64,000 nucleotides of DNA from Psammoneis japonica (GCA_008632985.1 QPGO01000007.1:496001-560000), one strand, 5' to 3'; positions 10,881-55,656 are shown, counted from the stretch's first letter. Numbers and translations are program-made. Notes: a model not told the origin generated them from the letters alone.

Positions 10881-10889
10881 CTCTTGATG

Positions 10890-20560: not shown

Positions 20561-20851
20561 TTTAGTCACAGCTCTGTGCCTAACGCAACCCTCTGCTTCC
20601 GACCCATTTTGGTAAAAAGTAAAAAATGGGGGTTTGTGATTACACGTGGAAGCATGGCGTTGGGACCCATAGCAGATCGCAGAACGGCAAAATGAACTAA
20701 ACGGAACCATCAACAGACCTCCACTACCGGTATGAGCATACGCATCCGGTGATAGCTGGCGTGTGGCGTGCATGCTACTGTAGTCTACAACTTAACTTGT
20801 ATGCTCGTTTCAAATCAGAGTCGAGTTTCCCTGTCAGTGGTTTCACGTTAA

Positions 20852-24766: not shown

Positions 24767-25011
24767 TGACAGGATTTGAACAAGATTTTAGTTTGTCACA
24801 CATGATCATGTGTGCTCTCAGCTCTGTGTGCATCGCACGATGCAGTTTGCTTTCGAGCCACACGGCTCACAAGAACAACAACAGCAGCGCCGACATCACA
24901 ACACCAGTCTTTCAGCTCCTGTGATGGTCTCTGCACGGAGACTCATCTGCCATTTAGACAGCAGCAAGGAGTTGTTGTTTTCTTCCACCCAGTCATCTTC
25001 ATTTTCTGTCA
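24767..25011 (+). repeat. Copia 5' LTR
   Basis: Colinear, indel-free match to 31425-31669. Confidence 0.95.
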
Positions 25012-31420: not shown

Positions 31421-31424
31421 GGAG

Positions 31425-31669
31425 TGACAGGATTTGAACAAGATTTTGGTTTGTCACACACAATTGTGTGTGCTCTCAGTTCCGTGCGTGTCGCGCGATG
31501 CAGTTTGCTTTCGAGCCACACGGCTCACAAGAATGATGACAGCAGCACCAACATCACGACACCAGTCTTTCAGCTCCTGCAATGGTCTCTGCACGGAGAC
31601 TCATCTGCCATTTAGACAGCAGCAAGGAGTTGTTGTTTTCTTCCACCCAGTCATCTTCATTTTCTGTCA
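31425..31669 (+). repeat. Copia 3' LTR
   Basis: Match to 24767-25011; followed by TSD CTTGG. Confidence 0.95.
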
Positions 31670-33536: not shown

Positions 33537-36149
33537 TTGCTGTTGTGGTTGGATTTCCCGCCTTCTGTTGTTGACATCAATCAGGAGAAGGGACGCGCTG
33601 GTTGTAGCTTGGGCATGGCAGGGTGTGCTTCTGTCAACTGTGCCTTTCCCTGGAAACGTTCGTGCATTTGTTTCTTCGCATTGTGGATCCTTCGGAGGCT
33701 GAGGTCTCGGCGACGTCCACCACTTTGGAGCTGCAGGATTTGATGCAAGTGCTTTGGATTGTCGTGTTGCCCATGTGTTGCCATCAGGCTTCCTTTGAAG
33801 TGTTGCTGTCGCATCCTGCCTTCGCCGTGCATGTCGACCCATCCTCATTGCCTCCTTGCAATGCATGCAGCTGTTGCTGTGGCACCCATGTGACACTGCA
33901 TCCCGCTTTGAATCGACGCGGGGTGGTTTCCATGCTTTTTAATGTTTTTGTGCATGGCCCTCATGTCATCACGACAATGCGATTGGTTTCCACTGTGGTC
34001 CAATCAATGCGATCCTTTCCCGATGCTCCGGCTTTGCTCTTTGGAAGTGGCTCAGCGAAGGTGCAACACCCAAGGCTGTAAAGCAAACCATTTTAGCCCT
34101 CATTGCCACTGGGATTGTAGTGTGCAAAACGGCAAAGGATGAATCCGACAAGTGTGTTGTGACCTTGTCCCTTGGTCTGTCAGCGCCTGGTGCCAATGAC
34201 TTTGCCATGAATCATGACGCACGTTGGGTGCGCATTCGGACAAAGGCGGTTTAACAATGCATCATTTGCGTTGATCATTTGTGTCACTTTATGTCCAATG
34301 TGCTGTTGCAGCATCATTGCGTCCAATCCATTAAATGCCTCTGACAGCATTTCGTCCTCCTCTTCTCCTTCCATGGCACAAAACAATGGCGCCATTGGTG
34401 ACTCCCGTTCCCGATCCGCTCTTTCCCCGGCTCTCGTTGGCAGATTTTTGCTTTTCATTTTCTCCTTGCCAACCAAGAACACGTTCTTGAAGCCGAGCGC
34501 ATTCACTGCTGCCTTTCTAATTTTGCCAATGGTGCGCTTGCCTGCTTTGGTGTCGATCTCCGCTGCTTCAGCACCTTCCATGGTTTCTTCAGCATCTTCC
34601 TCTGCCGCTTCTTCCGCTTCATCCGAGTGCAATGCACCAATGATCTCAGGGTCCATGGTTGACAACCTCCGGGACGCTCCATCGATGCACGCATCCTCAG
34701 CTGCACGTGCTTCTTCCATTTCTTCTGCCAACTCCATTGCCTCAAACGCTGTGCTTTCGTCGCCTTTGTTGGCCTCTGCATCATGCATTGCATCGGCCAT
34801 GCATGACAACAGAGACTCCTCCTCTGAGCGGCACTCTTCTTGCCATCTCGATGTCTGCTCGGCCTCCGACTCTGCATTCAACACTGTCGTCATGTTGGGT
34901 CGAAAGTTTGGGAGGCACAGGTCGAAAATGGGTTGTGGCCCGCCGTGGCGCAAGCAGCGGCATGCACTGTGGAGCATGAGCAAAAATGGCGTGAGATGGT
35001 GCAACAGTGCCATTGGTGTTTTTGGCACACAACAGCAACACATGATGCGTGTGTTGTCACCTGATGGACCGGGCGCAGCAGGAAAGGCACCGGGGGTGCC
35101 ATCCGCCGCAACATTGGTCACAGCGTTGGCACTGGTGACAAAATCAGTGGTGGGCGCTGCGCAGCCACAGAAAAAAGGTGTCAGTTGGCACCAAATGATT
35201 TCATCAGTTTGGGGCCAATGAGAGACAAAGCAACACAATCACCTGTTGCACCAGTCGGGCAAGGAAAGGTTCCGGGCATGGCAGCTGCGGGAAAGGCAGA
35301 AGCGGCATTGTCATTCATGCCAGAAGCTTCGGCAGGCGGTGGAGCTGAAAAAACAGAGTGTCAGCAAATGAGGTGTCGCTTCGGAAGCAATGGGGCTGCG
35401 ACGGCAATTTCAACAATGTCACCTGTTGCAGTGGGGTGAATGTCATCAGTGCCATCGGTCGCTTCTTCGTCCGAAGTGGGAGGGGACGAATGTTCTGAAA
35501 GACGCGTTCCAGGTCTAGGTGGGACCTCGTACTGCTGAACTGTGACATCGACAGTTTTTTGAATCTCGTCGTATGTCGCGCACGTAGAATTCTACGTGAT
35601 TTTTTTATATTTTGTGTCATTTTACGGTACACTTATTGAGCGATCCGTCCAAAAACTTTTGACATTTTTTGTTACAGCGCGATTCTATAATGTCTTAAGA
35701 ATCGCGTAGGGCAGGTGCATTTGCAAAAACGTCGAGTGGTAAGAGGCATAATTGTACCACAAACTTGGCCGTTTATTTAATGTTGAAGATAAATATATCC
35801 ATTAATTAAATTCTCGTACTACGGACCTCGCACGTAGAATTCTACGGGCCCAATGTCACACGGAGTCCCACCTAGGGCTGGAACGCGTCGAAAGCATCAT
35901 GGCGAGGTTGTTGTGCCGCGTGCTTTTTTTCGCGGTAAAGAGATGGCTGAAAACTGGTCAATTGGTGGGGTCCCTTCGAGGCGGCTCGAGATTTAGGGGA
36001 GAGTGCTGCATGGTTCAGGATTTTTCCTGCAACTGCAAGCCTTTGTGTGCGAATGAAATTGTCTTTGCATTCACACAAATGTGAAAATGCCATGACGTGA
36101 GCATGCATCACCATGACATCACCAACCATGCTCTCCACTGACGCAGGGG
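33537..36149 (-). mobile_element. Partial/rearranged copy A of a TIR element family (terminus CTGACGCAGGGG at 36138-36149)
   Basis: 36149-35040 is the reverse complement of 42478-42858 plus 48004-48340; 33537-34000 matches 48340-48800 in direct orientation; second terminus not found. Confidence 0.7.
35501..35889. mobile_element. 389-bp MITE with 25-bp TIRs and 4-bp TSD GAAA, TpA intact
   Basis: TIRs gacgcgttccaggtctaggtgggac / gtcccacctagggctggaacgcgtc (2 mismatches); GAAA at 35497-500 and 35890-93; empty site visible in the sister copy at ~42725 (minus strand, ...ttctGAAAgcatcat). Confidence 0.9.
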
Positions 36150-36932
36150 TGAACCGCGCCGGATCGGATCGCCGGATCGGATCGCGTCAGAATTCCGTCA
36201 GGGGGGCCCTGGTCGACAGGTGGAACCGGATCGGATCGCGGATCGGATTCGACATTTTGATGAGTCGCAAAACGACGTAAGTTTCAAGATTCCAAATTCT
36301 CAAGAACAACAAAGCACTGAAACACATGGCGAACAACAGAGAGAGTGTGGCCATGATGCTTCACATCTTGTCACAACGAGACGACATGACGACAGAACTG
36401 TGCCATCATTGCTTCTTTGCACACTCACTTGACCGCATCATTGAGCATCATTGTCACTCAGTGTTTGCAGCACGCCAAGGAAGAAAAAGCTGTCGCTTTT
36501 GCAATTCAGAAACTGACGCTGTGTTTTCGCACTGAAATTTCGAATTACATGATGAGTGCTTGTTGTTTTGCTTGTTCAATGTTTCTCCAACAAATCTTTA
36601 CGGCATTGTCGGTTTGACAAGCCATTCCATTGCCATGCGACCTTTTTCATCTCCATTTCAAGCATGGGAAGAGCAAGGCTGTAATGCCAAGGAAGTTCTG
36701 TGCCCTTGTGGCTGAATGTTGTGCCGCCCTGTGTCACAATCGTGTGATGTTGCGCCATTGTCGTGATGACGGCACGCTGGCACGGAATCTTCCAAATTCG
36801 ATCCGACATCCGATCCGAGATGGCGGATCAGTCCCACGAAGGCCACGGATCAACTTTTTGACTCGATGGACTAATGTTTTAATGGGTTGTGAAGGAGTCG
36901 ATCCGGCGATCCGATCCGGCTCGGTTCACCTG
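36148..36932. mobile_element. Putative non-autonomous element bounded by ~32-bp inverted repeats with (GGATC)n subrepeats
   Basis: ggtgaaccgcgccggatcggatcgccggatcg (36148-79) vs cgatccggcgatccgatccggctcggttcacc (36899-930), 1 mismatch; TSD not resolved. Confidence 0.6.
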
Positions 36933-37346
36933 TGGACCGAGCCTCATAAATCATAAATCCTTGGAAGCACCGGGGCGGCCGGCCGCCCGGTGGGCACGGA
37001 GCACGGAGCACTTTCATCGTGGAACCCCACAAATGCGCGGGGACCCGCAACCCGGAAATGTGCAGAGTTGTGCGTGCATGCATGGGAACTCTTCACGTGG
37101 GTTTTGCACCAGAGCTGTCTTGCGAACTGGGCGTTTTTTCGAAATTTTGTCGTAGAAACTGTGCCAGTTTTGCGCACGCAGGCTACATGTTTCAGTGCCA
37201 CATGCAAAAATGAGCGCAGACCTCTGCAGGAGGGTCCCCGCACATTTGCGGGGTTCCACGATGAACTTCACCATTCACCATGCCAAAACTTGAAGAGGCC
37301 TAAAAGCGTCGCATGGATGTTGTCTGTGTTTCAACGTCGTGGCAAG

Positions 37347-38165
37347 ATGTCAAGCACTTTGGGAATGAAGTTCAGCAATGGTGTTTTGAACAAAAAGGCT
37401 GCCGAAAAAGTCCCAGAGAAAAGATTGTCGCTCACAGCAAAGAGAAAGATGCAAAATTTCACGACATCAATTTTGGTCTTTTTGTCATTGGCCCAACACG
37501 AGGTGTTGGCTCTCACCGCAATGACTGAGCAAGATCAAGTGATCCGCCCCATTCCTGATGAAGCTGCGTGGAAGCCAGTCAGGGACAGTTGCCGAAAAGC
37601 GAAAGAGCAAGATGACAGTTTGGACGATTGGGATGCGAAGCTGCTGAAGGATTTGAGTTTTAGCAACAGTTTTCACGTGCCATTTGAGGTCCGTCAGACG
37701 CCTGGAAAAGGACATGGTTTGTTTGCTGCTGAAGTCACACCTGAAGGCTCCTGTGTCTGTGAAGATCGATCGGGACATTTCCTTGCAGAGAAGCAATGGC
37801 GTGAGTTTTTGGGATTGCTGCCACGAGACCTTGCTTGTGATTGTGTGGGGTGGTCACATGTTTCTGAGTGCCGGCACAAGGATCAAGAGACTGCACTCTT
37901 GGATCTCAGTGAAGGGTCGCTGATGAACCATGGAGAAACAGCTGCTCAATTCTCGAGAACACTCAAGTGCGCGACTCGGGACAAAGCAAACGTGAACGAA
38001 GCCCTTCACAGTGACGCGCAGCATGTGCATGCATCTCGTGACATCCATCTGGGTGAAGAGTTGCTGTGCGATTGCACAGAGTTCCACCTCTGTGATCACT
38101 CTTTGAATTGGTGTGCTGTTGCAAGGGAAGAATGCAATGGCCATGGGAACGTCCATCCTGTGTGA
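37347..38165 (+). pseudogene. SET-domain protein, hypermutated
   Basis: EVRQTPGKGHGLFAA, SLMNHG, ASRDIHLGEELLCDC (canonical SET GEEL.xDY; Tyr replaced by Cys); no Tyr in the ORF. Confidence 0.7.
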
Positions 38166-39430
38166 AGATCAGGGAAGAATCATCCACAGCCAGATCAGAA
38201 TGCTCAACATGAAATGCAAACATTTTGCCACTCTAGGCCCAAGACGGGTTTGCTTTTTGATTGTGGCCTGCATGACAGCAGCAAGAAGCTCTCAAGCTCA
38301 ACTCGCTCAGCCCTTCCATTGTCAACCGGATCTGCTGGCAAGCTCAAGCATCTCCGCAAATCTTCTTTGGCAGGTGAATGCTTGTTTTCAGTTGTGGGCG
38401 GCTGGACTGTCTTTGGCGCGATGATTTCCATCTGTCTCTAGAGAGCAGAGTGTTTTTTTTTTTTGCAACAGCACATTCTTTCACAAATTTTCCAGAGAAC
38501 GAAGATTTTTGCAAGTTCTGCGCATGCTTGCGAAGCCGACACGTTGGATCACCATCATTTCACTCGTTCAGCGAAGTGAAATGGCAAGGATCAGCGGACA
38601 ACTGGGGCAAAGAAAACTCTGGAAAACCACCCTGGCTTCTGCATCAAATGTGCCGGCAGTCAACCATGCTGATTTTTCCCAAAATGTCAGGCAACCAGCT
38701 GCCTTGAGGCATGTCACTGTCTGGGGTCACAGCACTTCACTCAGGCCACAATGCTGTTTCAAAGGTGGTGGCAAAATGGTGTGAAACAATGGCACATTCT
38801 GGCACAAATTCCAAAGTGGGCTTGGGTTCAAGCCACACTTGCCACGTGTCTCAGCAGCCACCCAGGTGACTGAACATCTGGGCATGCCATCACAGGCATG
38901 CGGTGAGACCAGGCACCTCCACCTGGCCAAACAAAAAACTGTTCCTGACCCCTGATCCTGGAACACATCATGCTCCCATTGTTCACAGGGGCGCCTGTGA
39001 CGTCTCTGCATGGAGACTTTTCTGCTGTGCGGACAGCAGCAAGGTGCTGCACTGGGTCTGGGCTGGAGCTCTGCTTGCCGTGTCCACCTGAAGCCATCAA
39101 TGCTTGATTGACGGAGACAGAGCAAGAGCGCCAATTCTTGTTCAAATTCTGTCAAAAGATCACACCTGGCACAGCATTTGCATTGTCACAAATGCTGAAA
39201 ACAGTTTCTTTGGCTGTGCAAAGGCAGCAGGAAGCATGGGGCAATTTCAAAGAAGATCGTCACATGCAAAAATGTGCACACACGACACATGGCATGATCC
39301 AAAAAAGTCTTGATGTTGCGGCAAAGCAGCGTGAGGCCCCACCCAAAGCTGGCACACATCCTCTGTCCCCTGATGTCTGGCTTCTTCTCTTGAGCATTCT
39401 TTGGCCAATTGTTCCTTGCACACAATGTCT

Positions 39431-39721
39431 GGATTTCCCATTTCCCAGATTTCTCTTTTTTGTGATTTCCTGTTTTCCCAGCTTTCCCAGATTTCCAGAT
39501 TCCTGGTTTTCCCAGATTTCTGGATTTCCAATTTTTCTAAATTTCCCAGATTCTTGGATTTCCCCCCCAGATTTCCAGTTTTCCCATTTTCCTGGGTTTC
39601 CAGTTTTCCCGCAGCAGCAATCTTGTGCAGTTTTTGCACACTTTTGGACAAGATTGGCTTGACAACCAAAGCAACAGTTTTTGCACACTTTTGGACAAGA
39701 TTGGCTTGACAACCAAAGCAA
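39431..39721. repeat. Degenerate ~9-bp TTTCCCAGA array followed by a perfect 47-bp tandem duplication (39628-39674, 39675-39721)
   Basis: Read directly from the sequence. Confidence 0.8.
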
Positions 39722-41364
39722 CTTTTTGACAAAGCAAGGGGTGCTGCTGCCACCCTGGCTCACCAGGTCTTCACTTCATTGCCCCTGGCTTCTTGGCTGA
39801 GAAGGAAACTTGCAGCTGCTGGAGTGTGCAAACCTCACAGCTGCTGCCTTGCAGCCACAACACCAACAAGACAAGCACACAGCTGCTGCAATCGACACCA
39901 CCTCTTGCCACCCAACAGGCCCTGAGATCTGAGGTGGGCACAGCCTGTCTCTTGAAAGGCTTCGCTGCCAGTGCAATCCAACACCAAAGTGGCCAGAACT
40001 TAAAAAATCTTTCCGTGACTGCCCTTGAATGTTGCACTTCAATTGTGCATGACAGTCTGACCCTGCATCAAGAGATTTGCAATTTTCTTTCACCTCTCAC
40101 ACTTTTCATTGCACTGCGGTGCTGTGGTGACAGAAAGGGTCCCTGCTCACGTTGTGCATGGCATGCCATGCACAGACATTTTTGCAAATTGTCACCAAAA
40201 TTGCACATGTGCACAGCATGCTGTGCACAATTTTTTGGCGCCTTTTGGTCGCCCCATCAATCAACCAGTTTGAAGCATCTGGAAAGACCTCATTGTGTCA
40301 AACATGTCAGATGCCTTTGATGTTCTCATTGACCCACTTGAAGCAGTTGATGTGGCCCACATTTGATGAGATTCAGAGCAATTTGTGCAGAAACCATGCA
40401 GAAAAAGGCTTGTGCAACTTCTCGCACAAAAGTTGCCCACCAGCCTCGCCAACAAGTGATCGCACTTCCAAGGTCACTGGAACAAGAAAGCTGCCACATC
40501 AAAGGCTGTCCATCAAACATGCCAACAAGCATTGAGTCAACATCAACAAATGCCATGTGTGTCATGCTGAGTCGAGGTGCACAGAACTTGAGTGACTCAA
40601 ACCTTGTGCACAGCATGCTGGGCACAACACCGAATTCTGCATTAAAGTCCTGCCAAAATTGACCAACTTCTGTGGCATTAAACAGCCATGTGGCAAGTCC
40701 CATGGTGGAAGCCATCCTTTGCAGCCTGTTGCGACTGTCAAGTGTGCTGAAAGGTTCAGCATGTCCAGAGAAATGCAATGTCTTGGGGAAGTTTTGCGAC
40801 ATGTGCAATGTGCACCCAGCGCACGGAGTGGGGACAGCCCATGTGACTGTGTGCAGCAGGGGGGCGGCCACGCAAATCATTTGGTGATGCTCACCAAACA
40901 ATCAGTGGCACCCCACATGGTTCGAATTTTTGCGTGCAGCACTCGAGGTTGTTTTCAACGTGAGAGCTTGCACTCAACAATGACGCGTGGTGAAGCACAT
41001 CCCGACATTGGCAGTGGCAAAAGAGAAAGTTGATGCAAGCAACGAGATGCCAAATGAAGTCATGCTGTTGATGCATTTGTTCAATGCAGTGCATTCATGA
41101 GTTTCAGTGGCTGCAGTCTCCAGACAAGTCGACTGCCAGCCAGATGAATTCATCATTTTGGTTGCATCTGCCTCGTACTTCGCATCGGACGCAGTGAATC
41201 ACGATGTGCTAAATTTTTCCTCATTTGGTTTCCATTTCTTTCCTCATTGTCTTTCCTCAATTGCGGGAATTGTGGGCGTGTCAAATGAGGAATTCGTCTG
41301 TCATGCGTTTTCGCTGAACAATTTCTGTCACTGAACGATGATTTGCGTGGCTGCTTTGGTGGGG

Positions 41365-41380
41365 NNNNNNNNNNNNNNNN
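41365..41380. other. Assembly gap (16 N) within a G run
   Basis: N characters in the sequence. Confidence 1.
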
Positions 41381-43273
41381 GGGGGGGCTTCACTGCAACA
41401 CAGCATGGGGACATCCCGAACAAATTCAGCCAGTGGCTAAAAACCTCCTGTGGAATTCCACCAATTTCTCCTGGTGTGCGATGTGTTTGATGACAACGCC
41501 TTTTAACGCCACCCCAATGTTTTCTTTTACACGCATGTCAACATTTGAAGGTTTTTGTTTTTGCACTTGTTTTCAAAGGCTTAAAAGCCAAAGGTTTTAC
41601 GTTGACGAACGTCACAGTTGGCAGCAAACCGTTGCAGATGTGACATTCACAGGTTGAGCAAAATGGACAGCAAATGTTTTCTGTGTAGAAAATGTGCCAG
41701 CGTGCAAACCTGCACCGTCCGCAAATTTTCATTGCTTGGCACATTTGTGAGAATCCAACAGACAAACACACATTTGTGTTGTGATGGTTCATGTTGCTTT
41801 GGGGCCCCAAGCCACAAGACACATTCTGTGCTCACCAAACTTGCCAATGTTTTTAATTGTGAAATGTCAATGGAGAGTTGGTGGCGGAAAGACGTCAACT
41901 GATTGTCAGTCATCACAAGTCATCACAAGTCATCATGAGCAATCAAGACAAACAGTGTCCACAGACAAACTGACACACATGCCAGCCCTTCAAACAATGT
42001 GGCCGTTGCCTCCACTCTGCAACGGGAAAGCCATCATTGACACATGGCTTTCCCGTTGAAAGCATTTCGAGATCACATTTGTCAGGAGAAGAGGAGCCGT
42101 TTGTCGCGCTCTTGCTGGCTCGTCAAGTCCAAGAAAAACAAGAGCTGATTCACAACTTGCATTGACGATGCCTCAGACTGCCCAATTGCACGCGCTTCTG
42201 GCTGCACGCTCACATTTGCAGCACCCAAAGCAGTTGAATTCTTTGTTGTGGCAATCATGGTTTTAATTTTGTGGCTTTGCTGATTGTTGTTTGAACGCCA
42301 CAGTTGATGCCAGTCAACATCAACGCATCCTTTCCGTCTTCTCGTGTTGATGACATTTTTGCACAGACAGACAGCTGGCTGTCCTTGCACGGGAACCGCA
42401 CACTCGACTTCCTAAAGTGAAGTCATCATGTGAGTCATCAAAAGCAATCACAAGTTGTCACAAGTCATCACAAGTCACCCCTGCATCAGTGGAGAGCATG
42501 GTTGGTGATGTCATGGTGATGCATGCTCACATCATGGCATTTTTGTGTTTGTGTGAATGCAAAGACAATTGCATTTGCGCACAAATGCTGACAGTTGCAG
42601 GAAAAATCCTGAACCATGCTCTCCCCTAAATCTCGAGCCGCCTCGAAGGGACCCCACCAATTGACCAGTTTTCAGCCATCTCTTTGCCGCGAAAAAAGCA
42701 CGCATCCCAGCAACCTCAGCATGATGCTTTCAGAATGTTCGTCCCCTCCCACTTCCGACGAAGAAGCGACCGATGGCACTGATGTGATTGGCCCCACTGC
42801 AACAGGCAATGTTGTTGAAATTGCCGTCGCAAGCCCATTGCTTCCGAAATTACACCTTTGCAACATGCGTTGTCATGTGCGCATTGCACATGTACATCTG
42901 CACATTAAATAAAAGCACATTTCAATCGCACGTCAATCGTGGGTTCGCACGAAGTGCAGATCGGTCACACAGAAGTGATCGGATGTCGAGAATCGCAAAT
43001 GCGATCGCACGATGATGTTGACATCTTGTGTGTCAATGTCAATCGCATCCGGACAATCTGTTGTCACGATCATGTTCTCCGAAAGGCCTTTTGTCTGCAG
43101 GAGCAGCACAAAAGGTTTAGGCTGTTGAGAACCCGTTTGGAGAAACCCAAAATGATTGCGCAGAAACAATTCTCACAATTTTCACTTTTTGAACTTCGTT
43201 CCACTTTCGTTTGCACTCGTTCTTCGAGCACAGTGCATTGTGCACACACACCACAGAAGGCAATGAGTTCAAG

Positions 43274-44428
43274 ATGAAGCTTTCACCTCATGCAACCAAC
43301 GCTAAAACTTCGTCAAGGCAGGAGAAAATCGTTCCTCAACCGCTGGAATCGAACTCCGAGCCGAAGAGCCTCAAACCGAGCCAGTGCCTCAAGATGGAGC
43401 AACGTTTTCATCCCGAGAAGAAGGACAGCCGCACCTGCACCATCAATGTCGAGCACTACAAGAAACAAGGTGTCCCCAAGTTCATCGAATTTCTCAAGAG
43501 CTACGATCAACTTCCAGTGGGCCAGAACATCAGGAAGCAATCTGATGAGTTTCGTCTCATGCGTGTGTTGCTCCAAGGAGACGCTCTACGTGCTTTCGAG
43601 AATGCGGCAGCGAACCTTGAAGACGAATCTGCAGAAGGAAGCTTCGAGAAATGCCTGCAACATCTCACGAGGCATGTGTTTCCCAAGAACACACTTTCGG
43701 TGCAGAAATGTTATTTGCGTCGTGATCTCAAGAAGCCGGAGTCCATGAAAGTGCGCGAAATTGCTGCTTGGGTCCAGGAAGTCAACGAAGACCTCAAGTT
43801 CCATCCTCCCTTTGGGAAGGAACAGAAGATTGAGGACGACGAGCTCAAGGACATCCTCTTCAATCTTGCACCTCGAAAGTGGCAGCGTCAGTCGACCGTC
43901 CAGGGTTTCGAAATTTTGAAACATGCCCATGACGAGTTGGTTGAGTTCTTGGAGCGCCTGGAGGTCGCAGAAGACACATTCGATGGCATTCATGCCAAGG
44001 CTGATGGCAGTGGCGGCACTGCATCAAAAGCCAAGAGTGGTTCCCAACGTGGTTCCAAAAATGGTCACCAACATGGCACCGAAAAATCTCAGTCCGAGAA
44101 GTGGTGCATTTCATGCGAGAAATCCACTCATAACACGGACAAGTGCTGGTCGATCAAAAGACTTGCGAAAGAACGCTGTGGGAACTGTGAACCCGACCTG
44201 AAACGGCGCCGTTCAAATGGCAATTGCACGTGGTCTCGTCGCGATAACGACAACGCCGCTCGCAAAGAAGAGTTGAATGCTGTGGCGATCCAAGCAGTTC
44301 AAAAAATGCTCAAAGCGAGTTCCTCGAACAATGACAAAAAGCACAAGAGCAAAGATTGTGATTCTGATGCCCTTGACGAGGAGAATTGTCAGTTTGAAAA
44401 AATGATGCGCAGTGATTCTGAGGAATGA
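43274..44428 (+). pseudogene. Gypsy gag with Zn-knuckle-like CISCEKSTHNTDKC
   Basis: Open frame directly after the 5' LTR and upstream of pol. Confidence 0.8.
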
Positions 44429-44524
44429 CTTGCACCGCAAGAGGAGTCTTGCACTCTGCTGGACATTAGGAAGCCCAGAAAAAGGGCCAAAGCAATTCAC
44501 ACTAGTCCAGCAGTCGTCGCCTGC

Positions 44525-47500
44525 ATGAATGCTTCATTGGGCAAAGCGAAAAATGAGCCTCTGCGCGTTCTCCTCGATGGTGGAACATCGTCAACCATAA
44601 TTTTGTGCAAATTCACGCGGAAACTCAGAACCAAAGCATCCGCCACCAAACTCTGGGAAACCAAAGGAGGGCTCTTTACGACTGATGGTCGATGTAAGAT
44701 CCAATTCTCCTTGCCCGAATTTGACAAACATAAGATGATCGAAACAACGGCACATGTTGACAACTCCCCTTCTTCTTCGAGTCGTTGTGACATGATCATG
44801 GGACGTGACTTAATGTCAAGTCTTGGGATGGTGTTGGACTTCTCGAATGAAGAGATCAAATGGGAAGATGCAGCCACTCCCATGAAGAATGTTGGTGCAC
44901 TCTTCGATGCCAATGTTTTTAAGTTGATTGCTGATCACATTGAGGAATCTCATGCAGTGATTGGTCTCAATGACAGGGTCAATCGGATCCTTGACTCAGA
45001 CTGTCACGCTGCAAACCTCAACAATGTGACTGCAGCAGCTGCTCATCTAACTCCTGAAGAGCAGAAGCAGCTGAACTTCCTCTTAAAAAGATTTGAGAAC
45101 CTTTTCGATGGTTCTCTGGGCAAATGGACCGGGAAACCGGTGGATTTGAAGTTGAAATCGGGCGTGAGTCCGCACCATGCCAAACCATTTCCCGCACCAC
45201 AAGCCTTGGAGGCGACTGCTCGTAAGGAGGTTGAAAGACTGTGCAAGTTGAAAGTCTCAAGAAAAACAAACTGTTCTGAATGGGCGGCTCCAACCTTTGT
45301 TCAACCCAAGAAAAATGGCAGAGTTCGGTTCTCACCCGATTTTCGTGAGCCAAGTGAGAGGTTGATTCGCACTCCGTTTCCTCCACCCAATGTTCAGGAC
45401 ATGCCACAGAAGCTCAAAGGCTCCATGCATGCAACGTCCCTAGATTTAAACATGGGACACTGTCATGTCGAATTGACGCCGCGCGCACGTCACTTGTGCA
45501 CGATCGTCATGCCTTGGGGCAAATGTGAGCACTGTAGACTCCCGATGGGAATCTGTGGAGCTCCAGATGTTTTCCAAGAGCACATGAGTGAGCTCATGGC
45601 AGGTCTGGAGTTCGTCAGAACTTGCATTGACGATGTGTTGTGTCTTGCAAAAGGCGATTTTCAAGACCACCTCAAGAAGCTTGAAACGGTGTTCTTGCGC
45701 CTGGAACAAGCCGGATTGAAGGTCAATGCCGAGAAGTCCTTTTTCGCTAAACCCGAAGCAGACTGTCTAGGCTTTCATGTCACCCGCAAGGGCATCAGCC
45801 CGATTCCAAAAAAAGTGGGAGCGATTCACGCGATCGCAACTCCCAAAACTCGCAAGGAATTGCGACGCTTTATCGGCATGATCAACTGCTGTCGAGACAT
45901 GTGGCCTCGACGATCTCATGTTTTAGCTCCTTTAGCCAAACTCACTTCTACCCAAGTAAAGTGGCAATGGACCGAAACAGAACAAAAAGCCTTCGAAAAT
46001 GTGAAGCGCATCATCTCCAAAGACACACCATCATCACACCCGAATTTTAATGTGCCCTTTGAGACACACGCCAATGCCAGCAATTCTCAATTGGGGGCGG
46101 TTGTTACTCAGAAAAACCGACCAATTGCCTTCTGCAGCCGCAAGCTGAATGGAGCGCAGACGCGTTGTGCTGCAACGGAAAAAGAACCATTGTCCACAGT
46201 GGAGACGTTAAAAGAGTTCTGCAATGTGCTGTTTGGCCAACAGACAAACACACACACGGATCACAAAAATCTCACACATGAAAATTTCACAACGGACAGA
46301 GTCATGCGTTGGCGTCTGACAATGGAAGAATGCAGTCCCAAAACAACACACCTTGAGGGCAAGGCAAATGTTGTCGCAGATGCGATTGGCCGACTTACCA
46401 TGAAGAAAATGGAACCTGTGGAAACCCTCAGCACAGAAGAGCTGGCTGAAAAGGTCCCACCAAAATCCTGCGACAATGTCTTTCCGTTAAATTACAAAGT
46501 TCTTGATTGTGAACAAAAACGGGACAAAGACATTCTCTCCCAATTGTCAAATGAGACGTTTCACACGAAGACTTTTCGTGGAGGCGAGTGAGACCGGTTG
46601 CTCACATGTCATGAGGATAAAATTGTCGTCCCGAGGACGTCACAAAAGGCAGTGATAGATTGGTGTCATGCGCACCTTCTTCACCCTGGCATGAATCGAA
46701 CAGAAGAAACAATCTCACAACACCTGTGGTGGTCCACCTCACGTGAAGACATACGAAAATACGTGTCGAGATGTGAGACATGCCAAAAATTCAAAAAGAA
46801 ACACAAGAAACATGGACATTTGCCTCCCAAGTGCGCAGAATCCGCACCATGGGAACGACCATGTGTGGACCTCATTGGGCCATACAAAATGCATCGTAAG
46901 GGAAAGAAAGAACCCCCAGTCCTGAAATGTTTGACAATGATCGATCCAGCAACCGGATGGTTTGAAGTTGTGGAAATCCCAAGTGAGGAGTCCACAACTG
47001 CAGCTGGACCACTGGAACGAACATGGTTGAGCAGACATCCTTGGCCATCGTCAATTGCATGTGACCGTGGAAGTGAGTTCATCGGACACCAATTTAAAGA
47101 AATGGTGCAAGATGATCACGGCATTGAAGTCAAGCCTGTGACTGCACGAAATCCACAAGCAAACGCAATTGTTGAACGCGCACATCAAGTGCTGGGGAAC
47201 ATGCTCCGTGCATTTGATTTGCAACATACACCTCCAGACACTGAGGATCCTTTCGCTGGAACACTGTCAGCGGTGGCATTTGCAGTGTGTTCCACGCATC
47301 ATGCCACTGCGCAAGCTGCACCAGGACAACCAGTCTTCAATGGAGACATGACATTTGGCGTCCAACATGTCGCAGACTGGAAACCAATCCAGCAGCGAAA
47401 ACAAGAAATCACAAATAAAAACAACGCTCGAGAGAATGCTCGACGTGCTCCTTGCACGCACAGAGTGGGAGAAAAGATGCCACTCGAGAAAGACTCGCAA

Positions 47501-47600
47501 AAATTAGAACAGCCCTGTGTTGGACCGCACGCAACAACAACGGCACACGCCAATGGCACAGCACAGATCAAACGCGGACAATGCCATTTAACGACTGACT
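44525..47600 (+). pseudogene. Gypsy pol (protease, RT, RNase H, integrase)
   Basis: LLDGGTS; LDLNMGHCH, RLPMG, CIDDVL; RNase H HANASNSQLGAV, TDHKNL; integrase HPGMNRT..CETC, VDLIGP, DRGSEF, NPQANAIVER; in-frame TGA at 46589. Confidence 0.93.
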
Positions 47601-50600
47601 CCAATGTGCAATTGGGGAGGCGAGTGCAACATGCGTTGTCACGCACGTGTTGTGTGTGTGTGTCCATGTGTCAAACAAAAGTGTGTTTCAATCGCACGTC
47701 AATCGTGGGTTCGTACGAAATGCAGATCGGTCACACAGAAGTGATCGGATGTCGAGAATCGCAAATGCGATTGCACGATGATGTTGACATCTCATGTGTC
47801 AACATCAATCGTGCCCGGACAATCTGTCATCACGATCACATTCTCCAAAAGGCCTTTTGTCTGTGGGAGCAGTGCAAAAGGTTTGGGCTGTTGAGAACCC
47901 ATTCGGAGAAACCCAAAATGATTGCGTGGAAACAATTCTTGCAATTTTCACTTTTTGAACTTCGTTCTACTTTCGTTTGCACTCGTTCTTCGAGCACAGT
48001 GCACCTTGTTGACTGACACTCTGTTTTTTCAGCTCCGCCGCCTGCCGAAGCTTCTGGCATGAATGACAACGCCGCTTCTGCCTTTCCCGTGTCTGCCACA
48101 CCCGAAACGTTTCCCAACCCGACTGGCACAAGAGGCAATGATGTCGCTTTGTCCCTCATCAGCCCCAAACTGACGAAATCATTTGGTGCCAACTGACACC
48201 ATTTTTGTGTTGCTGTGCAGCGCCTGCCACTCATTCTGTCACCAATGCCAACGCTGTGACCAGCGTTGTGGCAGATGGCACCCCCGGTGCCTTTCCTGCC
48301 ACACACGGTCCATCAGGCAATGACACATGCATCGTGCATTGCTGTTGTGGTTGGATTTCCCGCCTTCTGTTGTTGACATCAATCAGGAGAAGGGGCGCGC
48401 TGGTCGCAGCTTGGGCATGGCAGGGTGCTTCTGTCAACTGCACCTTTCCCTGGAAACGTTCATGCATTTGTTTCTTCGCATTGTGGATCCTTCGGAGGCC
48501 AAGGTCTCGGCGACGTCTGCTGCTTTGGAGCTGCAGGATTTAATGCAAGTGCTTTGGATTGTCGTGTTGCCCATGTGTTGCTGTCAGGCTTCCTTTGAAG
48601 TGTTGCCATCGCATCCTGCCTTCGCCGCGCATGTCGACCCGTCCTCATTGCCTCCTTGCAATGCATGCAGCTGTTGCCATGGCACCCATGTGGCACTGCA
48701 TCCCGCTTTGAATCGACGCGGGGTGGTTTCCATGCTTTTCAATGTTTTTGTGCATGGCCCTCATGTTGTCAAGACAATGCGATTGGTTTCCACTGTGGTC
48801 GCTGACGCAGGGGTGATCACAAGTCATCACAAGTGATCACAAGTCATCAACAGCCCTCACGACTCAAAACATAGAAAGGCACATGAACAAACAATTCATC
48901 TCGCGCACTTGTGCGCGGTTATTCGACTGTGTAGGTGTGTACACGTGTGTGAGGTGTAAGTAGAATATATGTAGAATTACTGCTGAGTGAGTTGACATGC
49001 GGTGGATTTTCCGCCGGTACACAAGCTACGTGGTCTACATGAAAGATACATTATGTTAGTCTCTGAAGCTTTTAGATATTATAAAATTTTGTTATGCTTT
49101 TAATATATACATATAGCAATTCAAAAATCTTACAGAACACCCCGAAAGAACTCTGGAATCTGGATAAAAAAAATTTCGATTTAACGTCCCGAACTGGGTC
49201 GCCCCGAAGCGCTTCTCAAAATGTTTACAGATTGGATACAGTAAAACATCTACTATTACCAAAACAGATTCACTATCGAATAAATAGATAAAATGTTCTT
49301 CGCGCGCAAACAACACGATAACGCCCAACAACACCATGGCGAGCAACGCGAGCGGCGTTCACTGATCTACAAGCAGGGAATACGAGATACTATTGAAGTC
49401 GTTGGACAATATTTATGTGCTGTATTCATGGGTCAAGTTGGGTTTCTTCTCACTGGTTGTTGTCGCGTCATTTTACAACGCCGTGCTCTTCTGCTTTGTT
49501 GCATCTACCGGTACGACACTGTGCTGCATCTGCTCGCGCGCCACCGAACAGCTTTTCCTGCAGGGTATGGCTAGTTGCACGGCTGAATCGAACCCAAACG
49601 TGCGCGACCAACTAGCCCTACCCCAGCTAACTCATAAACAGTATTATGTATGTTCTTCACCAAAGAAGACTAAATTTAACGGATAACCGTTACAAACTAC
49701 ATAACACCATTGACAAAAATTTCCGTTGCATTTATATAAATATTCCTACACAAGATTTTAGCCACTGGCTAAGACCCTGTCCAAACTGGACCATACCTGT
49801 ACATACCTGACGTCACGAAGCCTTTTTGCGGACGTCACAGGGTCATACCCATGCAGTGCTTTCCAAACTGCATCATACTTTTATGCATACCCCCACTTCA
49901 TCCATACACGAATATGTTGCATCTCTGATTTTATATATTTTCTGACTGATGAAGGTTGATCATTTCACCAGGGTGTTAAACGAACTACATCGATGAAGTT
50001 GGAATGAAACAGAACAAAAACACACGACGAGAGCGACGACACCATGACGACGAGAACGCAGCCATAAGGCGGCAATAAGCCAAGTAAAGGATACAAATCG
50101 ATCATAATATTAAACTTATGTATGACTTGTGTATAATCAACTTCACTGTATGAGTGTCTGCAGCGGATTGATTGAGAGAATGTTCAGGAAAAATGCTGCG
50201 TCGTGATGAGACAAGAACGGCACGCAAAGCGACCCAAACACAGCAAGTGCCTCATGTATGATGAGGTTGTGGGTTGTTCTTGGAAAAGGTACAGCAATGT
50301 GCACTTTCGTTGCATCAAAAACGCTGCTTCTGGGTCGTCTCGTGTGTCGACTCGGGGGTGTGGTGTTTGGGGCATGCCATTTTCGAGGAACACTGTTCAC
50401 CCCAGAACAAATCAAGATTTTGGGGGGGTTAGTGACTCCACGAGAGGGGGGGAGGGGAGAGGAGAAAGAAGGAGGAAGAGGAGAGAAAGGAAGGAGAGAG
50501 GAAGGGGTTGCGAGGGCAGCGAGCTTGATCTAAATTGCGGAAGTGGTTTGAAGAGCGATCCTCACTTCTTTCTCCCTTTTCACCACCCGATGTGTCAGAT

Positions 50601-52356
50601 CTCCGGGTGCTCGCATGTTGAAGTAATTTGGCGTGGTGACACCGATGAGACATTGCAGTGTTGAAGCATCTCTGGCATGAATTTTGCACAGAAATCTACG
50701 CAATTCAGGAGTTTCCCTCTGACACCAAACAAAAAATCGACCATGACAGCTGCAAGAGCCGGCAGTTGAAATTGTCGCCGTCACTTGTGATGCTGCCGTG
50801 ACAACAAAGCACGCATTAAAACTCTCTCTGACAAACGAACACACGAAAAGAGAGGTGTGAAAAATGTGAAAAATGGACAAGAAATGCGTTGGCACTTTTG
50901 CCATTTTTAGAACTCGTCTCTCACTCTTGCGTTGCAATTTCTGTTCGTTCTTGACAGATTGAAGAGCCCTCCTTTAAGCATTGAGCATCAATGGCGTCTC
51001 GTGCGCTGATGTTTCGTGCTGCAATCGTTGTGGTTCCAGCCGACTCTTCTCCAGTCGTCAATGAGGGTTTGCCAGTCATCGGGGTGGCGTTTCAGGATTT
51101 TTGCAGTGTCGCTGCTTGCGGCGCTGCCTCAGGTGCCATTGACACGCTACTTGAAGAGACTGATGGCCATGCATTGATTGTGGGTGCGGTTTGTGTCGTT
51201 TTTTTATCTACAATCTACCACTTTGGCTGGAAAAGTCCGCGCATGAGCGGCAGACGAGGTTGCCCTCGTCTTTAAATGGCACGGGCCACTGCCGAGGTTG
51301 CTGACTGCAGCAGCGCCTCGGCAATTTTTTTCTGCAATGATGTTCATGTGGCCCCACCTCTGAATGTTGAGACGGCTGATGAGAGCCAAGGGGTTGCTCC
51401 CCGGTGAGGCATTGACTGGTGCTTCCAAGGACGGGAGTGCCTTCAATCGCCGCAGACCCGAATCTCCGTTGCGACAGGGTTCACCTGCCCTCAAAGGTGG
51501 TTTGGATTGTCAAAGTTTTGCAGCTGGGTGGCACAGGGAGCAGGTGGCACTGGATCAGTTGTGCAGGAGCATGGGAGTCTACGGTGTTGGAGCAGCTGGT
51601 CGTGGTTCTGTTGCACTGCAAACATCACTTTTGTCCTAGAGCTCATCTCTGTGGCATTGTTTCTGACTTCAGTCATTGACAGCGTGTTCCACAGGGCACG
51701 CAAGAACAACGGCTGCTTCAGCTCTTACGACCACTGCTGCAACTCTTGTGACTGCTGCTGTTGTTGCGACTGCTGCAACTCTTGCGAACCCGGCTAAAAA
51801 CAAAGGTTGTTGATGCTGTTGGAGTGCAGGAATCGGCAGCGTTGAAATAAAACAGTGAATCAAAAACTCATGCATGGAATGTGCCCAGCAATGACAACAT
51901 CCACCTTCTTGACTGCTGTCTCTTTGGGCAATCCTTAGAATGCGCTGGTCGACCTCTTGGTCGGCACCCCGTCACGCTGTAGCTTTGCTGCAGCTTGCAT
52001 TGCAGGAAAGCAGGACAACAGTGCGGATCAATGTCTCGCTTCCTTTGATCTCGTGTTGGATCATCAAGAGTTGAAAGAGCCGGTTGCACTTGACATGGAA
52101 CAGATGGGAGGGCTGCACTCATGCTCGATGCAAAAGCAAGCTGTTGCGAGAGGGTGCTTCTCATGGCTTGCAACATGTTGAACTGCTCCTCGACTTGAAC
52201 GTGAGCTGCATCAAGCAATGGAGTGGCATCCATGCACACAGGTTCAACCGTCACCTCGGGAGCCATCGCAATTTCGACAATGCCGCTTGCAGGTTCAACG
52301 GTTGGCGCCGCTGCAGTTTCCCCATCGTCACGGTTTCCAACTTCTGATCTTGTTGT

Positions 52357-55206
52357 TCACTTGCATGGATTTTGCACCGGTTTCGTCCCACAGAGATTGC
52401 ACATGCATCGATCTGTCTCGGGGTGTGGAGCAATCGTTTCATTTCTTGCATTCTGCTCCAGCAGGTGCTGGGACAAGAAACGCTCGCCGGTGTCCTCCTC
52501 GAGTTCCCTTGCATTCGGATGTGGCGCTTTCTTCCCCTTTTTTATTGCAAGGTTGTTGATTTCAATTAGATCAAGTGCATTCCGATGAGCAACCACGCCC
52601 CGAAAGTCGCATGGAATCTTGGCTCGCGCCGTTGCATCCATTTTCTCGATTCGCTCCTTCTCTTCAATTGTTTCATTGTGCAAAACTAATCCTTCCAACG
52701 CAAGCAAGTCCATCAATGAATGTCTCATTCCGCAATTTCCACAATGTGCCAGTGAATCGTGTGCCTTCTCCAATTTGGATTCTGGTCCTAGCAGCGTTCG
52801 CCACTTTGCCAGTTTTGCTTTCGACCACAGGGACGGCGCTGCTGGCCAGCACTGCTCCGACTTTGGCACTGGAGTGTCCAATCCCTTGGAGGTTTCTTTC
52901 GCATTCAAAATTGCATCCTTTGTGTCGGTTGCAAACAGTGTTAGTCCACTGTCTGGATCCAGCCGTCCTCCGGCAGCGGGGGCTCCGTCGGAGGCAGTGC
53001 ACTTGCATCGAGCAAACCAATCCTCAAGCAAAGTGAGCCTTTTCTCCAGCGGGTGCCTCCAGAGATGAATGCATTCCTGGCAGTGCTTCCACCTTGAAGA
53101 GTGGATGACATCTTGTGTCTCCTCGTCAGAATGCTTTTTGTTGTTTAGAGTGCCATCCTTCAGGGCTTGCATCACAGCTTGGCAGTCGGACCACTCGGCA
53201 CACGATGCGGTCGCCTTAAGATCACTTGCAGCTTGCCAACAATCAGCATGCTCTTTTCGGAGCGTTCTTACAATTCGATGCATCCAATGAAAGAGCCCGA
53301 GCAGACAGATTGGGTTCATTCCGAAAATTGTCTTCCACAGCTGCGACTCATGCGGCCAGGTGTCGCTGCAGTGGATTTTCGGTCGCACGTTTTTTCGCCT
53401 GGCAAACTGTTCTGCCGTGTGAGCAAAATCTTTTGCTTCCAATGTTGGGGTTGGGCAAGCGGTTCCTACCTGCCCCTTTTCATTGCACATGGTGAACAGG
53501 CCAGCTGCTCCACCTGCTTTCTTTGAGCAGTTTTTGAGAATCTGAAAAGTGTGATCGGATGCGACACTCACGGTGGCTCCAACCATCTGTGTTGATCTCG
53601 TGCACCTGTCATGCGAGGACGTGGCCAGAGCTGTCAATTTTGATTTGCCGCTTTCGTCATAAAGATCGAGAAGTGCAGAGCCTGATGGACTGCACCCGCC
53701 CATCCAATCCTCAAAAGACACCCAGTCTTCGGTTTTGTCTGTGGCTCGGTCACAGTGTTCTTTCTGGAGGTCCTTGAAACAGTCGACTCGCATTTGGTGC
53801 AGCATGTGCGAGAACTTGTCCCCGCCTGAGCACGTGACAACAATGGACTCAAGGAGTCTTGTAGTTTCCTTGGTGAGATGCCACTTGTTGGTTGCACTGG
53901 CATGCTCAGGCAACGTTGGATGTGCTGACTGCAGGCTTTTTGGCAGCTTGTGCAGCAGTCGACCGTCGTTGCCCTTGCATCGAATTTTGCATTGATTGCA
54001 TTCGCACCACATTGACACCGCCATGTGCGTCTTCCCGCTGATGCAACACATTGGTGTCGCCCCACCGCATCGAGTGAAGTCCATGCGGTCATGAATCATT
54101 TCACCGTCGCACTCTCCGTCAATGCAGGGGATGCAGATGTTGGGACAATTCAGCTCCCAACAAACAATGTGCATCATCACACCTTGCAGCTGATGGCAGC
54201 AATGATCAGGTGGCAATGTGCAGTCATCCTTGGGAACTTCAAATGACATTGCACCAGGAGGAAAAGTTTCATCCTCAAGCTCCAGCATCTCGTTGAGCTC
54301 AACACTTTTTGCTGTAGCCACAGGACACTTGTTGCTGCCTTGCTCGAATCTGGGCTTGACAGAGTCCAACAGACAGCTGATGAGAGCACTTGCTGCAGCC
54401 GGGCACTTCGTCCTCTCCTCGGAGTTCTCGCATTTTTTTGCTCTTGCTCGAATCTCTTGTTTCAAAGTCTCAACCGAAAATTTTGCAATGGCGGCTGCCT
54501 TGCAAGCATTGTCCGTGTGCTCCACGGGGCCTGCAGCACCAGCCACCCCCGAATTCACCGGCTTGCAAACATTGGAAACACCTGGAGGAGGCAATGTGAT
54601 GCGAGCTTCAGGTCTCTGCGCTCCAAAATGGCCTTGCATGGTCGAAACTCCCTCAACTGGGGCAGCCGGAATCGTGTTGTTCGTTTCGTGCAGCTCTTTG
54701 TCACGTCGCTCTGCATCCATGGCAGCTTTGGTGACATTCACTTGCGAGCACCTTTTTGAAAATTTACATGTGGGATCATGGCCATGATGACATGTGGGAC
54801 CTCTCTCACATCTCTTGCATTTCTTCATTCCGTCGTCTGCTCTTGCCACCTTGCGCCCACTAAAATCGCTCTGATGCATCCGCTTCTGGCGTGTGTGCGC
54901 TTGGCTTTTGCTCGTTTTGATGGAGCCTTTGCGTTTCTGGGATTGAATGCCCATGTTTCTAAAGAAAGGATGCAGCTGCCGCTCTTCGGCCTCTTTTGTT
55001 GGAGCAGATTCTTCCGCTGCGTCCGTCATCATCGAAGCACCAGCAGAGATTGTACTTTTCTCTCTCGCAGGTTTTTTTTGTGAGAGAATTTTTCTCATCG
55101 CGTGAGAAGTCTGTGTTGTTGTGATTTTCCGTGGTGCGAAAGGAAGATGACAGTCGGTCTCCGCATCATTCTGATTCTTGTGTCTGCTTTTGGAGAGTTG
55201 TCTCAA
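52357..55206 (-). mobile_element. DDE DNA-transposase-like ORF (949 aa; Mutator/hAT/P-supergroup-like), hypermutated; the element probably spans ~50.5-55.3 kb
   Basis: VASDHTFQ, TMCNEKGQV, IHCSDTWP, GLFHWMHRI, ESKLEKAH motifs plus Cys-rich zinc-binding segments; only 1 Tyr in 949 aa; superfamily is my inference, TIRs not identified. Confidence 0.65.
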
Positions 55207-55656
55207 CCTCCTCGTCCCTGAGTGATTGCGTCAGATTTTCCAAAAAAGTGTTGATTAATTAGTCGGAAAGTCCTCGACTTTCCGAGGGTCTCCCCCAAGC
55301 AGAAATCCCAAATGCTGAATTCTGATTGGCTCTCGTAGCGCCATTCCTAATCCTCCCTCGATTCAAACAAAAGTTGGTATGGCCTAAAATTACGTCATGC
55401 ATAGGGCTAATAACCATTAATTTTTTCGAAGAGGCTTATTTTCGGCTCTATGACGTCAGCTATGTACATAGGTATGCATGGTCCAGTTTGGACAGGGTCT
55501 AAAATCATTCGGTATGTCCCCATACAGTGCCGATGGCATCGTCGCCATCGCCTCTCGGCATCTCCTCTATCTTCGTCCCCTTCTTTCCCACCAGGCATTA
55601 TCTCTTTTCTTCTTCTCTCCGTTAATTGTTTCGACAAGAAAACCAAAGAAATACTG

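Follow-up and report, generated by a model that had tools for sequence, protein, structure and literature searches.

A dead Ty3/Gypsy retrotransposon of Psammoneis japonica records post-integration loss of TpA within sharply bounded chromosomal blocks

Hypermutation of DNA directed at the dinucleotide TpA has so far been documented in one preprint of 2026, for two viral inserts (Mettrop et al., 2026-04-14, bioRxiv 10.64898/2026.01.13.699255). According to its main text, mutation-accumulation lines of Bigelowiella natans yielded 302 new single-nucleotide mutations, 231 of them inside two integrated viral regions, which mutated at about 6e-7 per site per generation, and 230 of the 231 were A>G or T>C, all assigned to TpA and giving TpG or CpA. 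Erasure was episodic in these lines, reverse transcriptase and DDE domains were over-represented among 324 TpA-poor coding sequences (CDS), a genome-wide count gave 124 clusters of TpA-poor 1-kb windows, and an ADAT2-like adenine deaminase was proposed. That main text, figures and supplements aside, does not mention long terminal repeats (LTRs), retrotransposons, CpG, flanking bases or context. A full-text literature search brought up no further account of TpA erasure, the remaining dinucleotide matches all concerning fungal repeat-induced point mutation (RIP). Here we describe a stretch of 64,000 nt from Psammoneis japonica (GCA_008632985.1 QPGO01000007.1:496001-560000), called the window throughout and the basis of all coordinates, which contains a full-length but dead Ty3/Gypsy LTR retrotransposon at 42859-48003. 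After integration, about 93% of the TpA in each LTR of this element and in its coding part turned independently into TpG or CpA, in near-equal proportions, through T>C on either of the two strands. As far as its main text goes, the preprint already describes the core phenomenon.

The Gypsy element landed in an older repeat and has the following parts.

42855..42858, plus strand: target-site duplication CCTT, left copy, directly 5' of the 5' LTR
42859..43237, plus strand: 5' LTR, 379 bp, with TG...CA termini and 4 TA remaining
43274..44425, plus strand: gag-like frame, translation read directly, no Pfam family; ends with an in-frame TGA at 44426-44428
44105-44146, plus strand: zinc knuckle CX2CX4HX4C, within the gag-like frame
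44429..46588, plus strand: pol part 1; ends with an in-frame TGA at 46589-46591
~45341-45781, plus strand: RVT_1 (reverse transcriptase) in pol part 1, Pfam
45623-45640, plus strand: reverse transcriptase catalytic motif, which reads CIDD; Tyr comes first in relatives
~45968-46330, plus strand: RNase H in pol part 1, Pfam RT_RNaseH/RT_RNaseH_2
46592..47624, plus strand: pol part 2
~46628-46798, plus strand: Integrase_H2C2 in pol part 2, Pfam
~46859-47155, plus strand: rve core in pol part 2, Pfam
47614-47624, plus strand: purine-rich tract GGGGAGGCGAG, adjoining the 3' LTR
47625..48003, plus strand: 3' LTR, 379 bp, with 2 TA remaining
48004..48007, plus strand: target-site duplication CCTT, right copy, directly 3' of the 3' LTR

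The LTR ends read TGCA...TGCA with CCTT on either side, as in Gypsy elements, and a single frame runs from the 5' LTR to the 3' LTR, broken only by the in-frame TGA at 44426 and 46589. Along this frame Pfam places reverse transcriptase, RNase H and integrase in that order, which is the order of Ty3/Gypsy. The coding part has no frameshift and dozens of missense changes, one of them in the reverse transcriptase catalytic motif, and it is through such changes that the element has died. An empty-site paralogue of its flanks lies at 35028-35501 on the reverse strand, uninterrupted and with a single CCTC at the insertion point, and contigs from the read run X1 join 42852 to 48002. Insertion with a 4-bp duplication, and with it the assignment of both LTRs to one element, is well founded because the duplication, the empty-site paralogue and the empty-site contig joint all point to it. 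Within the window the family is represented by its two LTRs only (self-BLAST), scans for transfer RNA (tRNA) and Rfam families over the 64 kb gave no match each, and an exact 22-base word of the Gypsy LTR had no match in metagenomes. The repeat finder detected only the inner 300 bp of the LTRs. On either side of the Gypsy-bearing repeat, at 42423-42487 and 48802-48876, a 10-bp unit (AGTCATCACA-like) is repeated in a short array; 42470 is joined to 48813 in one contig, and forms that lack everything between the arrays may exist.

Base-for-base alignment of the two LTRs has no gaps and contains 51 differences, all of them transitions (from the 5' to the 3' LTR C>T 16, A>G 15, T>C 11 and G>A 9), with no transversion and no indel. 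At a transition to transversion ratio of 2:1, 51 transitions out of 51 have a probability of 1e-9. All but two of the differences, those at 42954 (G/A) and 43048 (T/C), lie inside pyrimidine-purine doublets; such doublets cover 208 of the 379 positions, and at least 49 of 51 falling within them has a probability of 5e-11. Counting doublets that are pyrimidine-purine in both LTRs, we found 19 reciprocal TG/CA doublets (13 CA>TG, 6 TG>CA), six in which TA stands against TG or CA, and five in which CG stands against TG or CA, while the two LTRs have in common 21 CG, 25 TG, 28 CA and no TA. The original prediction for this DNA, made from sequence alone, had described 379-bp LTRs that align without gaps and differ by transitions only, six sites of TA against TG or CA and about 19 reciprocal doublets; the alignment agrees exactly, and the counts are exactly 6 and 19. 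It had also placed the changes after insertion and independently in each LTR, which 51 differences within one element bear out. The tract that it quoted, the first 62 bp of the LTR, holds 24 of the 51 differences. The same prediction suggested that a probable promoter there may have been destroyed and that the TGCA ends may go back to TGTA...TACA. Divergence between the LTRs is 13.5% raw and 0.5% outside pyrimidine-purine doublets, so LTR dating is invalid for this element.

A further claim, that runs of same-direction changes reflect processive, strand-coordinated action, is not supported. A runs test on the LTRs gave 8 runs against 9.2 expected (P=0.34), and the order of TG and CA in the erased blocks introduced below shows no clustering (z from -0.80 to +2.13 in five blocks, and from -0.97 to +1.16 in normal segments). 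Among 61 coding sites there were 24 runs against 31.3 expected, a weak signal (P=0.04). CA predominates slightly among the outcomes in the 5' LTR and TG among those in the 3' LTR, a difference short of significance (Fisher P=0.088; binomial P=0.17).

The lost doublet had been named as TA and not CG on the basis of the LTR pair. The direction holds, and the pair alone is insufficient: reciprocal TG/CA doublets need two changes from either ancestor, and parsimony counts six sites for TA against five for CG. Three other lines of evidence settle the direction: conserved protein columns, a model of shared states, and a normal gene copy beside an erased one, which is taken up below. For the first, 778 relatives of pol were found (best identity 56%), and the first 60 of 120 listed were aligned. 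In 27 columns at least 70% of the 60 relatives have tyrosine (Tyr); there the element has His 12 times, Cys 11 times, Phe twice and Tyr twice. Since Tyr codons are TAY, His (CAY) and Cys (TGY) are exactly what TA>CA and TA>TG would yield. By comparison, Arg is kept at 31 of 37 Arg columns, the rest being Cys 3, Gln 1, Lys 1 and Gly 1, and Tyr makes up 0.4% of pol in the element against 3.9% in the aligned relatives. Conserved pol columns hold 138 differences, of which 80 are explained by one transition and the other 58 (more than one change, or a transversion) were left unclassified. The 80 comprise 36 A>G, of which 32 follow a T, 30 T>C, of which 28 have an A next to them on the 3' side, 8 G>A and 6 C>T; A>G and T>C thus account for 66, and 60 of these 66 lie in TpA, 32 giving TpG and 28 CpA.

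For the second, a model with TA as ancestor and a loss of p=0.93 per LTR expects 0.2, 5.6 and 19.2 doublets that are kept in both LTRs, kept in one or discordant, where 0, 6 and 19 were observed; it implies about 44 original TA. A model with CG as ancestor predicts 10.3, 26.3 and 8.4 for an observed 21, 5 and 19 (chi2 41.8, P=1e-10). Taken alone, the CG sites give a decay of q=0.10 per LTR and only 0.13 expected reciprocal doublets against the 19 seen; in the Gypsy LTRs CpG decay is about 25-fold slower per site than TpA loss. TA>TG/CA is a genuine change and the prevailing one; CG>TG/CA accompanies it as a separate process at a lower rate.

Erasure is a property of whole chromosomal blocks and not of the Gypsy element, a point absent from the original prediction, as is the parallel CpG decay. 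The observed/expected ratio (O/E) of TpA is 0.28 for the whole window and bimodal per kilobase. A two-state hidden Markov model on TA positions, with parameters chosen by us, called five sharply bounded erased blocks that make up 40,603 of the 64,000 bases (63%).

8009..13567: erased block with a truncated Cys-loop receptor copy; TA O/E 0.03, CG O/E 0.28
15984..20562: erased block with the strongest CpG depletion, its open reading frames (ORFs) without Pfam family; TA O/E 0.03, CG O/E 0.13
23034..35515: erased block with a Ty1/Copia element; TA O/E 0.09, CG O/E 0.60
35995..48871: erased block with the Gypsy element and the older repeat around it; TA O/E 0.10, CG O/E 0.70, TG O/E 1.61, CA O/E 1.56
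50150..55255: erased block with a 957-aa open frame; TA O/E 0.12, CG O/E 0.72

TA O/E is 0.03-0.12 in these blocks and 0.52-0.90 in the segments between them (pooled, 0.08 vs 0.60), and CG O/E is 0.13-0.72 vs 0.88-1.51. Of the 16 dinucleotides only TA and CG are lowered in the blocks and only TG and CA are raised, and GC content is 0.501 inside and 0.475 outside. Retrotransposons, repeats and one stray host-gene fragment copy fall within the blocks, whereas the interspersed host genes are spared; the normal segments carry genes for a Cys-loop receptor, a subtilase, a histidine phosphatase, and TIR and Roc-TIR proteins. The outcome in the blocks is a loss of Tyr codons, of TAA and TAG stops and of TA-rich signals. 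Tyr content is 2.4-4.4% in host ORFs and 0-0.1% in block ORFs, and stops per kilobase fall from outside to inside from 9.3 to 2.3 for TAA and from 9.7 to 1.4 for TAG.

The Copia element provides an independent replicate of the Gypsy LTR pattern.

24767-31669: Ty1/Copia element with 245-bp LTRs and target-site duplication CTTGG; RVT_2 matches at 27365-31192, ORFs with 0-0.5% Tyr

Its LTR pair has 20 differences, all transitions, and 19 of the 20 lie in pyrimidine-purine doublets. The stray copy of a host-gene fragment allows an erased sequence to be set beside its normal counterpart.

9925-10880: truncated copy of the 3' part of the Cys-loop receptor gene and of the DNA after it; source 5502-6450, found by self-alignment

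The source copy at 5502-6450 belongs to an intact gene and is itself normal, and only this one member of the duplicated pair is altered. Its 28 aligned TA have become CA at 13 sites, TG at 11 and another doublet at four, and none is kept; the 43 aligned CG have become TG at 21 sites, CA at 15 and another doublet at four, with three kept. Erasure thus also reaches host-derived DNA and spares one copy of a duplication.

The bases that flank TA may influence how readily it is lost. Four-base words were counted in erased and normal segments with both strands pooled, and the retention given here (erased/normal) takes normal DNA and not the true ancestors as its baseline, so the values are indicative only.

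ATAT: 0 (0 counts)
ATAG/CTAT: 0.011
ATAC/GTAT: 0.023
GTAC: 0.07
ATAA/TTAT: 0.095
CTAC/GTAG: 0.13
GTAA/TTAC: 0.15
CTAG: 0.17
CTAA/TTAG: 0.28
TTAA: 0.61

On this indicative scale the range from 0 to 0.6 is large, with ATAT gone and TTAA largely spared; TTAA accounts for 10 of the 51 TA remaining in the Gypsy element.

Sequencing reads bear on whether these changes are mutations. Run X1 contains 47% of the sampled words of 42000-49000, and two other runs, X2 and X3, have almost no coverage. The X1 contigs reach 315 kb with a word depth of about 30-130. One of them (depth 32.6) equals the window at 48165-48368 with no difference, over a stretch that has 0 TA, 27 TG and 24 CA. Against the window, 4,865 contigs of the Gypsy family show 537 places with a transition (A>G 118, T>C 105, C>T 168, G>A 146) and 64 with a transversion. 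In the 40 of 606 variant rows listed, none of them at LTR positions, the rest of the family keeps TA at 3 of 16 well-supported positions (46188, 46613 and 46641) where this copy has CA or TG, and six positions are private CpG losses of this copy. Summed depth over the element is about 6,000-9,000, by a crude ratio roughly two orders above single contigs, from which we take the family to be many-copied, each copy with its own transitions. Over 48165-48337 there are two contigs of like depth (32.6 and 32.9), one equal to the window and the other with 24 differences in 173 bases; the second represents either another allele or a paralogue whose differences arose through changes of the same sort.

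We regard it as quite probable, taking the whole account together, that the dead Gypsy element underwent TpA erasure after integration, as part of blocks, and that the cause was an ADAT2/TadA-like deamination in silent chromatin. The adenine of 5'-TA-3' in DNA, on either strand, would be deaminated to hypoxanthine and read as G at the next replication. The tRNA target of TadA and ADAT enzymes is A34, which follows the invariant U33, and this would give a rule of T before A. The enzyme would be of this ADAT2/TadA-like kind, as proposed for B. natans. Targeting could run through silent chromatin or small RNA, and the CpG decay would be deamination of 5-methylcytosine in the same silent chromatin.

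Several points weigh against this account. The sequence of the window names no enzyme, and a deaminated A and a chemically changed T give the same letters because TA is its own reverse complement. The tie to B. natans would be one of mutational signature alone, and the ancestral state of each LTR doublet is a probable one, estimated statistically and not observed. That only one copy of the Cys-loop receptor pair is altered speaks against a purely homology-triggered process. A further insert sits in an erased repeat.

35502-35889: MITE-like (miniature inverted-repeat transposable element-like) insert of 388 bp with inverted ends of ~28 bp and a GAAA duplication; missing from the paralogue at ~42727

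It has normal TpA and high CpG, and therefore erasure has ceased there or comes in episodes, unless the insert is very recent. Lastly, X1, a run of unrecorded library type that may have supplied the assembly itself, is no independent argument against a systematic misreading of a modified base within the blocks alone.

The alternative that survives best, though we think it unlikely, places the change on the other base of the pair: the thymine in TpA of silent DNA would be oxidised or hypermodified (to 5-hydroxymethyluracil or 5-formyluracil, by a dioxygenase of TET/JBP type) and mispair with G, giving T>C on either strand. With TA palindromic the sequence outcome is identical, and a few T>C changes outside TpA have C or T as the following base (TpC in 2 of 30 T>C). 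In dinoflagellates hydroxymethyluracil is found mainly at TpA and TpC sites, and 5-formyluracil promotes T>C mutation; however, 5-formyluracil also yields transversions, of which the LTR pairs have none (0 of 51 in Gypsy, 0 of 20 in Copia). Moreover, the only published proposal, judged from the main text, is an adenine deaminase (bioRxiv 10.64898/2026.01.13.699255).

An artefact of sequencing or base calling, in which a modified base of silent DNA was misread and a true TA written as TG or CA, seems to us very improbable. The regional pattern is what a chromatin-bound modification would produce, and the uncertain origin of X1 is in its favour. Contigs of up to 315 kb at a word depth of ~30-130 nevertheless suggest accurate reads, one of them matching an erased stretch exactly, and the thousands of distinct family contigs with their own transitions are unlike the product of random per-read errors, which would not assemble in this way. 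TA is nearly absent rather than kept at a quarter of the sites, and no excess of CG has been created. In the main text on B. natans, Illumina mutation-accumulation data show such changes as real mutations (bioRxiv 10.64898/2026.01.13.699255).

Slightly less credible still than the artefact is ordinary decay of methylated CpG, by which reciprocal TG/CA doublets would arise from CG through deamination of opposite strands in the two LTRs. Such decay does occur in the blocks (36 of 43 CG turned to TG or CA in the erased gene copy, CG O/E down to 0.13), the LTRs have five sites of CG against TG or CA, and parsimony on the pair fails to tell a CG from a TA ancestor. As the main or sole process it was rejected: the CG model misfits, predicting almost none of the 19 reciprocal doublets from its own decay rate, 21 CG are intact in both LTRs where no TA is, the LTRs retain a CG O/E of 1.17-1.23, and conserved Tyr has turned to His or Cys at 23 of 27 columns with Arg largely kept.

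Least probable of all is editing before integration, whether A>I on RNA by an ADAR-type enzyme or APOBEC-type on complementary DNA (cDNA), or a chimera of LTRs from two elements joined by recombination: ADAR prefers U before the edited A and retroelements are targets of both enzyme classes, yet pre-integration changes would have been copied into both LTRs, which have 51 differences, strand outcomes are balanced (His 12 vs Cys 11; A>G 32 vs T>C 28), erasure extends to the flanking repeat and to a host-gene copy that is no retroelement, the direction is opposite to that of APOBEC, and LTRs from different elements, a possibility that the original prediction had itself raised, are disfavoured by the intact CCTT copies and by the lack of any indel or transversion. 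Biased gene conversion was dropped, as TA and CG are the only lowered dinucleotides and the LTR pairs hold no transversions.

Beyond these elements, the window has 101 ORFs of at least 130 aa because TAA and TAG are depleted. A Pfam search of 36 ORFs found no family for the 31 lying in blocks and matched two of the other five, which lie in normal segments or at block borders; the Pfam matches in blocks are those of the two retrotransposons and of two further ORFs (AAA_16, SET). The long open frames of the blocks, listed first here, probably represent dead genes, or else phantom ORFs that arose when TAA and TAG were lost; two intact host genes follow.

8096-8887, plus strand: AAA_16 NTPase fragment, open frame in an erased block, 0-0.1% Tyr
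36957-38165, plus strand: weak SET match, open frame in an erased block, 0-0.1% Tyr
52357-55230, minus strand: open frame of 957 aa in an erased block, 0.1% Tyr, no Pfam family
55414-57456, plus strand: TIR-domain ORF, intact host gene with normal TpA
60380-63280, minus strand: ORF with TIR and Roc GTPase domains, intact host gene with normal TpA

The two TIR ORFs have 35% identity over ~216 aa. Between the last two erased blocks, at 48872-50149, lies a 1.3-kb island of normal TpA (O/E 0.90, GC 0.416) that has no long ORF and no tRNA or Rfam match; read run X2 covers its left edge.

What the window adds is an end state of TpA erasure on retrotransposons, in which 93% of TpA is gone from LTRs that are only 0.5% apart outside pyrimidine-purine doublets, with changes made after integration and independently in each copy. 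The raw divergence of these LTRs overstates the age of the Gypsy element about 25-fold, the loss of TAA and TAG creates long false ORFs, and erased genes escape homology searches as their Tyr is replaced by His or Cys. The window also connects TpA erasure with the decay of CpG and, by inference, with methylated silent chromatin, and the four-base preference is a constraint that any candidate enzyme must reproduce. A broader proposal, which we advance tentatively and which could as easily prove wrong, is that the process goes beyond defence against a few viral inserts and that a chromatin-wide, RIP-like system rewrote essentially all non-genic DNA around the host genes, turning both self-complementary pyrimidine-purine doublets, TpA quickly and CpG some 25 times more slowly, into TG and CA, leaving the ATAT/TTAA footprint and reaching stray gene copies. 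If so, it would govern LTR dating, gene prediction (through phantom ORFs free of TAA and TAG) and base composition in such genomes, and the Gypsy family would be a set of independent replicates for measuring the process.

Among known systems, RIP as described in Neurospora and further fungi is similar in being a transition-only hypermutation of transposons and duplicated DNA that spares genes, kills through missense changes and distorts dinucleotides blockwise. It differs in that RIP acts as C>T, chiefly at CpA, and thereby generates TpA and reduces GC content, whereas in the window TpA is destroyed and GC goes slightly up (0.475 to 0.501); RIP also alters both copies of a duplication, and here one copy of the pair 5502-6450/9925-10880 is untouched. 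RIP itself was considered as the process and rejected on the pooled TpA O/E of 0.08 in blocks vs 0.60 outside and the corresponding GC values. CpG decay of methylated transposons is matched by CG>TG/CA in the same blocks, with their lowered CG O/E, but this arm is minor, being ~25-fold slower per site in the Gypsy LTRs, and offers no explanation for the loss of Tyr. The action of APOBEC3 and ADAR in animals likewise leaves a transition-only signature of deaminase type, with a fixed neighbour base and recorded in LTR elements; those enzymes have cDNA or RNA as substrate prior to integration and affect one strand, whereas the changes here are post-integration, on both strands and also in DNA that is not of retroelements.

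The closest likeness, as far as the main text of the preprint describes that system, is to B. natans (bioRxiv 10.64898/2026.01.13.699255). Both show near-exclusive A>G and T>C on TpA, giving TpG or CpA by strand, in foreign DNA beside a normally mutating genome, and both leave a footprint of low TpA with high CpA and TpG and of TpA-poor reverse transcriptase CDS. The window has the A>G/T>C bias, the TpA context with both outcomes, the confinement to blocks and the action after integration that mark the B. natans type, and 45 of its 64 1-kb segments have a TA O/E of at most 0.43, the 5% cut-off used there. B. natans offers new mutations in two viral inserts with TpA mildly lowered (Rho 0.45 in the giant-virus insert), whereas the window has a TA O/E of 0.03-0.12 over 63% of 64 kb. 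To that system the present locus appears to add LTR pairs as paired replicates, the accompanying decay of CpG, a flanking-base preference, an erased copy of a host gene and the scale of erasure.

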